Positions 26,222-26,601 of a stretch of 64,000 nucleotides of DNA are shown here, piece by piece. The translations under genes and the position numbers were made by a program. The stretch is from Escherichia coli (GTDB lineage: Bacteria > Pseudomonadota > Gammaproteobacteria > Enterobacterales > Enterobacteriaceae). Below the pieces are notes generated by a model, which saw nothing but the letters and a program-made list of their open reading frames with translations, did no database searches and was not told the DNA's origin. Position 1 is the stretch's first letter. Each line of letters opens with the position of its first letter. The DNA is taken from assembly GCF_016026235.1 (NCBI RefSeq), contig NZ_CP065613.1; one strand, written 5' to 3'.

Positions 26222-26601
26222 AACAACCTCTCTTATAATTATGGGTATTCTACGGAAACAATATACCGTGGTGAAGCTAATTTACTCGATTGCTGCGATG
26301 ACTACCTCCGGGGGACAAACCTTATGTAAATACTATGGTCCTGCGGTGATAATTTGTATGTGATACACAGCAACATTTCGAGATATTCATACGGCATCTA
26401 ATACTGATTTAATTCTGGTTAAAATACAGACAGATAACAAGATGAATATTCTTAATGTTTACGTTAAAAATGTTTAATATTATTTAATAGTTGTTAATTT
26501 GAATACTTCGATAATGTTATATTTCCTGATAATCATTTGCAGGCAAAATGTTTTCACCCTTAAATGAGTATTTATTCTCATAGATCGAAAAAGGATTCAT
26601 T

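Follow-up and report, generated by a model that had tools for sequence, protein, structure and literature searches.

The DNA analysed here is a stretch of 64,000 nucleotides from Escherichia coli (RefSeq assembly GCF_016026235.1, contig NZ_CP065613.1), which is referred to below as the window. In the part of the window that is of interest, acrD (22950-26063, plus strand) is followed by the small gene ypfM (26162-26221, minus strand), which encodes a protein of 19 amino acids (MIERELGNWKDFIEVMLRK), and by yffB (26602-26958, plus strand), which encodes an ArsC/Spx-family reductase. The gene dapE (26962-28089, plus strand) lies directly downstream of yffB, and ypfN is the third gene of the yffB-dapE-ypfN operon, for which b2471|b2472|b4547 are listed under a single transcription start site (TSS). 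The start codon of ypfM on the minus strand ends at 26221 and the ATG of yffB starts at 26602, meaning that these two flanking genes are transcribed away from each other and are separated by a spacer (26222-26601) of exactly 380 bp. The annotation of the K-12 strain has an identical layout, with ypfM at 2590807-2590866 and yffB at 2591247-2591603. The window is colinear with K-12 MG1655 and differs from it by five single-nucleotide polymorphisms across 26064-26700. Window positions are converted to K-12 positions by adding 2,564,645 for NC_000913.3 or 2,562,667 for NC_000913.2.

The spacer is poor in G and C, with a GC content of 0.313 compared to 0.527 for the whole window, and within it the GC content falls to 0.24 in a 200-bp window and to 0.18 in a 100-bp window. 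The most AT-rich stretches of 100, 200 and 380 bp in the entire 64 kb (GC 0.18, 0.24 and 0.31, respectively) all fall in or overlap 26222-26601. Of the 17 gaps of 40 bp or more between genes in the surrounding 50 kb of K-12, this spacer is both the longest and the lowest in GC, and the runner-up measures 292 bp with a GC content of 0.34. A divergent spacer of this size is long by E. coli standards without being out of the ordinary. A preliminary description of this DNA had singled out a 380-bp AT-rich gap between ypfM and yffB, and both its exact extent and its composition (31% GC) are borne out. A 601-bp query around the spacer has a match in 5425 of 5426 complete E. coli genomes. In the 30 genomes listed, annotation under this query is limited to ypfM and yffB, plus an IS1 transposase in one strain.

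To follow the locus beyond E. coli, YffB was used as a handle, which yielded 80 Enterobacterales loci, with no Salmonella locus among them. In about 60 of the 80, ypfM is divergent from yffB. The spacer measures 378-391 bp in Escherichia, Citrobacter, Enterobacter, Leclercia, Lelliottia and others, and 202-839 bp elsewhere. An alignment of 25 sequences, in which E. coli was compared with 22 sequences of other genera, divides the spacer into conserved and non-conserved segments. The highest identities are found at its two ends, in the yffB Shine-Dalgarno region (26590-26601, identity 0.75) and in the ypfM leader with its core promoter (26222-26275, 0.72). Next are the central block (26330-26388, 0.63), an element upstream of the ypfM promoter (26276-26300, 0.61) and the -10/TSS region of yffB (26506-26524, 0.59). 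Between these lie a G+C-richer segment (26301-26329, GC 0.48) that is not conserved (identity 0.36) and for which the alignment gives no consensus RNA structure, the AT-rich core (26389-26505, GC 0.21, identity 0.35) and the body of the yffB leader (26525-26589, 0.32).

On the yffB side, SMRT-Cappable-seq has assigned one TSS to b2471|b2472|b4547, at 2591166 of NC_000913.3, which corresponds to 26521 in the window; this site comes from one data set and is not listed in Kim 2012. It is located 6 nt after the hexamer GATAAT (26510-26515), the E. coli version of the -10 within the conserved region 26506-26524 on the plus strand. Overlapping GATAAT, the sequence TGTTATATT at 26515-26523 is extended -10-like and conserved across genera. 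For this TSS, the sequence offers no good -35 hexamer. Rightward transcription of the yffB-dapE-ypfN operon starts at 26521 from a -10 (GATAAT or TGTTATATT) without a good -35, presumably helped by the A/T-rich DNA upstream. A different yffB promoter, TTCATA-16-TTTAAT at 26387-26414, has been predicted by Shimada et al. 2014 (PMC3946193), and a TSS for it was not found in two TSS tables.

The yffB mRNA starting at 26521 has an unstructured 81-nt 5' leader (26521-26601, plus strand) with the Shine-Dalgarno sequence AAGGA at 26591-26595. The block around this sequence is conserved and the body of the leader is not. At +7 to +21 relative to the TSS, a Fur-box-like site, TGATAATCATTTGCA (26527-26541, plus strand), matches 12 of 14 positions of the 7-1-7 consensus TGATAATnATTATCA and outranks every other match in the 64-kb window. 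About 2% of random sequences resembling this intergenic region contain a match as good as this one, and in the alignment the site is specific to Escherichia. In a Salmonella fur mutant, yffB is up 2.6-fold, and the Fur box predicted there differs.

On the ypfM side, the promoter P1 (26247-26275, minus strand) consists of the -35 hexamer TTCACC (26275-26270), a 17-nt spacer and the -10 hexamer TAGAAT (26252-26247). The two hexamers match the consensus at 9 of 12 positions, P1 is the single promoter-like site that a consensus scan finds in the region, and it is conserved across genera. The same combination, TTCACC-17-TAGAAT, has been predicted for ypfM by Shimada et al. 2014 (PMC3946193) in a spacer bound by RNA polymerase holoenzyme. 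The TSS table of Kim et al. 2012 places a ypfM TSS at 2588907 of NC_000913.2, i.e., at 26240 in the window, with a 19-nt leader and 4 reads. The upstream sequence printed for this TSS contains both P1 hexamers, placed correctly upstream. The resulting 19-nt 5' leader (26222-26240, minus strand) carries the Shine-Dalgarno sequence GAGAGG (26232-26227); identity over this segment is 99% within Escherichia and 72% in the 22 sequences of other genera.

Immediately next to the P1 -35 on its upstream side, at about -40 to -60, lies a conserved element of 25 bp (26276-26300, minus strand; alignment block TTTAAcCaATtGcTGtGATT), which is probably an activator site or an UP-type site. In Salmonella, a MarA ChIP-seq peak has been reported at ypfM<>yffB with the motif ACCCAATTTGATAAA, and the E. 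coli element appears, in a comparison made by eye, to be homologous to this motif. It is a poor marbox in E. coli, and the resemblance to the Salmonella motif is by eye only; when up to three mismatches are allowed, the Salmonella MarA 15-mer is absent from the E. coli spacer and from the spacers of the other genera. The sole match to the 15-mer at this threshold (locus L003) sits in acrD. MarA-type factors and Fur may act at the candidate sites noted in this spacer.

The ypfM transcript has an E. coli 3' end at 26081, which has a high Term-seq score and is present in two data sets. The Rfam family STnc250 (RF01409) matches at 26063-26182, outside the spacer. In Salmonella, STnc250/ypfM has been described by Sittka et al. 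2008 as a short, growth-phase-dependent RNA that gives a Northern signal and is enriched 4-fold by Hfq coimmunoprecipitation. The gene and its acrD/yffB context are the same in both organisms, and the E. coli match spans the whole Rfam model, although its score of 37.1 bits lies below the gathering threshold of 42. Based on the Term-seq end at 26081, the Salmonella Northern and Hfq data and the sub-threshold STnc250 match, the ypfM transcript is real and abundant. In the proposed scheme, leftward transcription would start mainly at P1, and the short mRNA of this small-protein gene corresponds to the Hfq-associated STnc250 RNA of Salmonella. The two systems differ in that only the ypfM promoters fall within the spacer and in the size of the RNA, which is about 220 nt on the Salmonella Northern compared to predictions for E. 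coli of about 160-175 nt from P1 and about 270-285 nt from a second promoter, P2.

The putative promoter P2 is located in the conserved central block of 59 bp (26330-26388, minus strand). An nhmmer profile of 26328-26388 recovers the block in about 55 loci. It keeps one orientation throughout and lies 107-124 bp from the ypfM ATG, while the DNA separating it from yffB ranges from 182 to more than 700 bp. As the block is fixed relative to ypfM and variable relative to yffB, it belongs to the ypfM side. It is present in a single copy per E. coli genome and is without annotation in the genomes listed. In 47 aligned block sequences, a -35 of TTCAAA is present in 26, a -10 of TAAAAT in 20 and of TTAAAT in another 10, and every one of the 47 keeps the two hexamers 18 nt apart. 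At the homologous position in Leclercia, Citrobacter and Enterobacter, TTCAAA/TTCAGA-18-TAAAAT is picked up by the consensus scan. The corresponding E. coli hexamers, CTCGAA (26382-26377) and TACAAA (26358-26353), fail the criteria of the scan. A second ypfM TSS has been reported at 2589017, i.e., at 26350 in the window, with a 129-nt leader (Kim et al. 2012), and the 50-nt upstream sequence printed for it is the central block. This data set holds many low-count sites, and the two ypfM TSSs have 4 (P1) and 2 (P2) reads. Only 3 nt separate the TSS at 26350 from the upstream hexamer that aligns with TAAAAT, which means that either the -10 of P2 is offset (CACATA or CATACA) or the TSS position is imprecise.

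Taken together, these observations mean that the central block is best read as a second, upstream promoter of ypfM. P2 would be a good sigma-70 promoter in most Enterobacteriaceae and a degenerate one in E. coli, where it is presumably functional, would be weaker than P1 and would start transcription at about 26350, giving the 129-nt leader. Tandem P1/P2 promoters are known for single bacterial genes, and the arrangement at ypfM resembles them in having two same-strand TSSs 110 bp apart, each preceded by a promoter-like motif. It differs in that P2 rests on two reads in E. coli, where its hexamers are decayed compared to those of other genera.

Within the block, TGTGA is invariant and GCAAYATT is near-invariant, both inside the spacer of P2, and the conserved ACTATG (26333-26338) is located downstream of the TSS at 26350. 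These sequences (TGTGAC, GCAAYATT and ACTATG) represent more conservation than a bare promoter needs. This raises the question of whether the chief role of the block at ypfM is that of an operator or activator site, such as a CRP site at TGTGA-N6-GCAAC, instead of a promoter. The conservation of TGTGA and GCAAYATT exceeds the needs of a promoter spacer, and the TSS evidence for P2 is weak, both of which favour such a site. The promoter has independent support, however, from the TSS at 26350, the conserved hexamers and the scan results in other genera, and a purely operator-type role is therefore considered doubtful, while still being the most serious competitor among the alternatives weighed here. 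The two roles are not exclusive, and a promoter with an overlapping operator is likely. Several specific candidates have been tried and rejected. A CRP class II site at 26359-26374 (TGTGA-N6-TCACA) has three mismatches and is no better than chance, with 185 such matches in the window against 218 expected. FNR, ArcA, PhoP, PurR, TyrR, ArgR, NagC and Cra, as well as LexA, NikR, OxyR, DnaA, sigma-54, sigma-32, sigma-E and sigma-28, are unconvincing for the block when their consensus sequences are compared with it by eye. ACTATG was also considered as a minus-strand -10 (CATAGT); it has no usable -35 (GTCACA would be spaced at 19-20 nt), no TSS has been reported there, and the reading as P2 has superseded the idea.

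The conserved block, located in the middle of a long spacer and away from both start codons, could also hint at an unannotated small RNA gene that starts from the block or from the AT-rich core, the more so as the neighbouring ypfM transcript is Hfq-associated in Salmonella. A ypfM-strand promoter already accounts for the block, though, and a permissive Rfam search over 25900-26900 returned inside the spacer only noise from eukaryotic snoRNA and CRISPR-repeat families, with E-values of 7.5-9.8. No terminator-like site was found by scanning 26222-26601, and the Term-seq tables give no 3' end on either strand for 2590800-2591199. RNAalifold gives a consensus structure with 0 pairs and no covariation, and the spacer RNAs fold no better than shuffled sequences (z-scores of +0.56 and +1.02). 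The putative long ypfM leader was examined for conserved RNA structure in the same way, by alignment and by folding against shuffles, and none was found. A small RNA gene in this interval is accordingly regarded as highly improbable. A small protein is even less to be expected. All open reading frames found in the interval are 10-40 amino acids long and none is conserved as coding sequence, in agreement with the preliminary description, which had found no credible open reading frame here. The best candidate is a 22-amino-acid frame on the minus strand (26322-26390, MNISKCCCVSHTNYHRRTIVFT), for which similarly placed frames of 13-30 amino acids exist in Escherichia albertii, Citrobacter and others, with peptides 50-73% identical to that of E. 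coli. The start codon of this frame is not conserved (0.28-0.66 bits), the length of the homologous frames varies from 13 to 30 amino acids, and there is no visible Shine-Dalgarno sequence upstream. Conservation over the three codon positions is 1.27/1.44/1.53 bits, the third position being the highest, compared to 1.98/1.88/1.65 for ypfM as a control. In the small-ORF supplement of the ribosome-profiling study Stringer 2021, there is no entry for 25908xx-25912xx. The similarity of the peptides across genera is a by-product of the conserved DNA element. The earlier suggestions of an unannotated small RNA and of an unannotated small protein in this interval have thus found no support: the former lacks an Rfam family, a terminator, a listed 3' end and a conserved fold, and the latter lacks a frame with coding-type conservation and an entry in Stringer 2021.

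Two further explanations concern the yffB half of the spacer. The leader at 26521-26601 might hold a cis-regulatory RNA, i.e., a riboswitch, an attenuator or a thermometer. Its length of 81 nt would allow this, and in Salmonella the small RNA SdsR acts post-transcriptionally through the leader region: in its full-length form, it represses a translational yffB fusion that spans the TSS (-97) to +75 (Fröhlich et al. 2016, PMC5137417). The gene and its leader are orthologous in the two organisms. The 81-nt E. coli leader differs from the Salmonella one in having a poorly conserved body (just 32% identical to other genera) and no significant or conserved pairing with SdsR; the best pairing, of GCCUGCA with 26538-26544, has a p-value of about 0.07 and is not conserved. 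The leader also has no Rfam match and no terminator-like site, its minimum free energy of -10.8 kcal/mol is no better than that of shuffled sequences (z = +1.0), and the Term-seq tables give no 3' end for 2591166-2591199. It is therefore very unlikely that the E. coli leader holds an element of this type. As for the AT-rich core (26389-26505), it might be a remnant of horizontally acquired or mobile DNA, given its extreme AT content, the H-NS site reported for the spacer and an IS1 insertion in one strain. The stretch keeps its location in 5425 of 5426 E. coli genomes, however, spacers of similar length (378-391 bp) are found in several genera, there is no similarity to phage or genuine plasmid DNA, and no repeats of it occur elsewhere in the genome, which leaves such an origin with almost no probability.

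The core itself, 117 bp in length and lower in GC than any other stretch of the window, shows no sequence-specific conservation. It is likely to bind H-NS and also to provide the A/T-rich DNA upstream of the yffB promoter. In genomic SELEX in vitro, an H-NS site has been marked for this spacer, with no position given within it (Shimada et al. 2014, PMC3946193). The 10-mer H-NS nucleation motif TCGATAAATT has two matches with two mismatches in the spacer, at 26378 and 26508; with 70 such matches in the window against 54 expected, the motif is non-discriminating. Between the two promoter sets, the core would be free to drift in sequence, being constrained in its composition and spacing. It would serve as a platform for H-NS, which presumably also acts here in vivo and could silence transcription in both directions. 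In strain EC2341, IS1 is inserted in the core with a 9-bp duplication of 26467-26475, and the core may be an easy target for this element.

Most of this arrangement can be placed beside the type-A divergent spacers with constitutive sigma-70 promoters and an H-NS site of Shimada et al. 2014 (PMC3946193), in whose catalogue this spacer is present at 55.80 min. RNA polymerase holoenzyme binding, the H-NS mark and the ypfM promoter TTCACC-17-TAGAAT are shared, and the TSS at 26240 confirms this promoter. The differences are that the predicted yffB promoter (26387-26414) is off the mapped TSS at 26521 and that P2 is not listed. In general, the content of the spacer is essentially all present in published genome-wide data sets already.

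Altogether, it is very probable that 26222-26601 is the shared control region of two divergent transcription units and that nothing else is encoded in it. The spacer is an ordinary divergent promoter region, with two ypfM promoters, one promoter for the yffB operon and an AT-rich stretch between them that is probably bound by H-NS. Of the possibilities raised in the preliminary description, promoters are supported by published TSSs in both directions (leftward at 26240 and 26350, rightward at 26521) and by holoenzyme binding in SELEX, and a region bound by a nucleoid protein is supported by the in vitro H-NS site and the extreme AT content. Beyond the promoters of yffB and ypfM, the sole addition is the apparent second ypfM promoter, and the novel part of that description fails.

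The result matters chiefly for annotation: a spacer that was suspicious through its length and AT content alone is now mapped nearly end to end, with a clear negative for a hidden gene. A conserved promoter block that is absent from annotations lies upstream of ypfM, a gene which encodes a conserved protein of 19 amino acids and whose mRNA is bound by Hfq in Salmonella. There is a small chance that this block combines P2 with an overlapping operator for some transcription factor, an arrangement that would account for TGTGA being invariant and GCAAYATT nearly so inside the invariant 18-nt spacer, and for the conserved ACTATG just downstream. If this is true, a factor acting at the block would switch ypfM between an mRNA with a 19-nt leader and an RNA with a 129-nt leader, and the long form of the Hfq-associated ypfM transcript might have its own regulatory, dual-function role. 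If ypfM or yffB gains a defined function, its control would best be sought at the candidate sites: the two ypfM promoters, the conserved element next to P1, the Fur-like box and the H-NS core.

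Two consecutive hairpins occupy the 98-bp gap between acrD and ypfM, at 26114-26138 and 26068-26103. The second of these is terminator-like on the minus strand in a terminator scan, and the same scan raised no plus-strand flag for it, in which orientation it lies just 3' of acrD. The 3' end of the ypfM transcript has been mapped by Term-seq to 26081 on the minus strand (K-12 2590726), with strong scores of approximately 60,000-105,000, and falls within this GC hairpin, which is a bidirectional terminator common to acrD and ypfM. In the source table, this 3' end is labelled 'antisense to acrD'. 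The transcript ends in ...GGCGACACAUUGGCAU at this position and not after the U-tract, which may be due either to cleavage within the loop or to a mapping artefact.

The 3' part of ypfM and its terminator are also the region matched by the Hfq-binding RNA STnc250 (Rfam RF01409) in an Rfam search. This match (26063-26182, minus strand) covers the full model and scores 37.1 bits, narrowly missing the gathering threshold of 42. In Salmonella, STnc250 has been identified as the ypfM small mRNA, with a 4-fold enrichment with Hfq and a size of ~220 nt by Northern blotting (Sittka et al. 2008).

Five SNPs distinguish this strain from K-12 across 26064-26700, and two of them lie upstream of ypfM: one at 26320, within a non-conserved segment of the spacer, and one at 26351 (A versus G), adjoining the reported transcription start site (TSS) of P2, the putative second ypfM promoter. 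In one study, the ypfM intergenic region served as a polymorphic marker in E. coli source tracking. In E. coli EC2341, the AT-rich core carries an inserted IS1 element whose transposase gene is frameshifted (677-1433 of locus L085), flanked by a 9-bp target duplication, AAAATGTTT (26467-26475). The insertion point is ~46-54 bp 5' of the yffB TSS, so that the element comes between the yffB promoter and the ypfM half of the spacer.

In Kosakonia and some other genera (Enterobacterales loci L018, L019, L053, L046, L070 and L072), the ypfM-yffB spacer measures 600-840 bp, and the additional DNA has been inserted on the yffB side, because the distance from the central block (26330-26388) to ypfM is unchanged. 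Leclercia and Enterobacter share a conserved plus-strand site that resembles a promoter and has a TG extension, ~140 bp upstream of yffB (TGGACT-18-AATAAT, 1334-1363 of L025; TGGACA-18-AAGAAT, 1336-1365 of L021). This site has no counterpart in E. coli, and the location of the yffB promoter may therefore differ among genera.

Downstream, two published plus-strand dapE TSSs differ in position, at 26692 (2589359 in NC_000913.2; 8 reads, Kim et al. 2012) and at 26915 (2591560 in NC_000913.3; SMRT-Cappable-seq). Both lie within the yffB coding sequence, and dapE is therefore expressed both together with yffB and independently of it.
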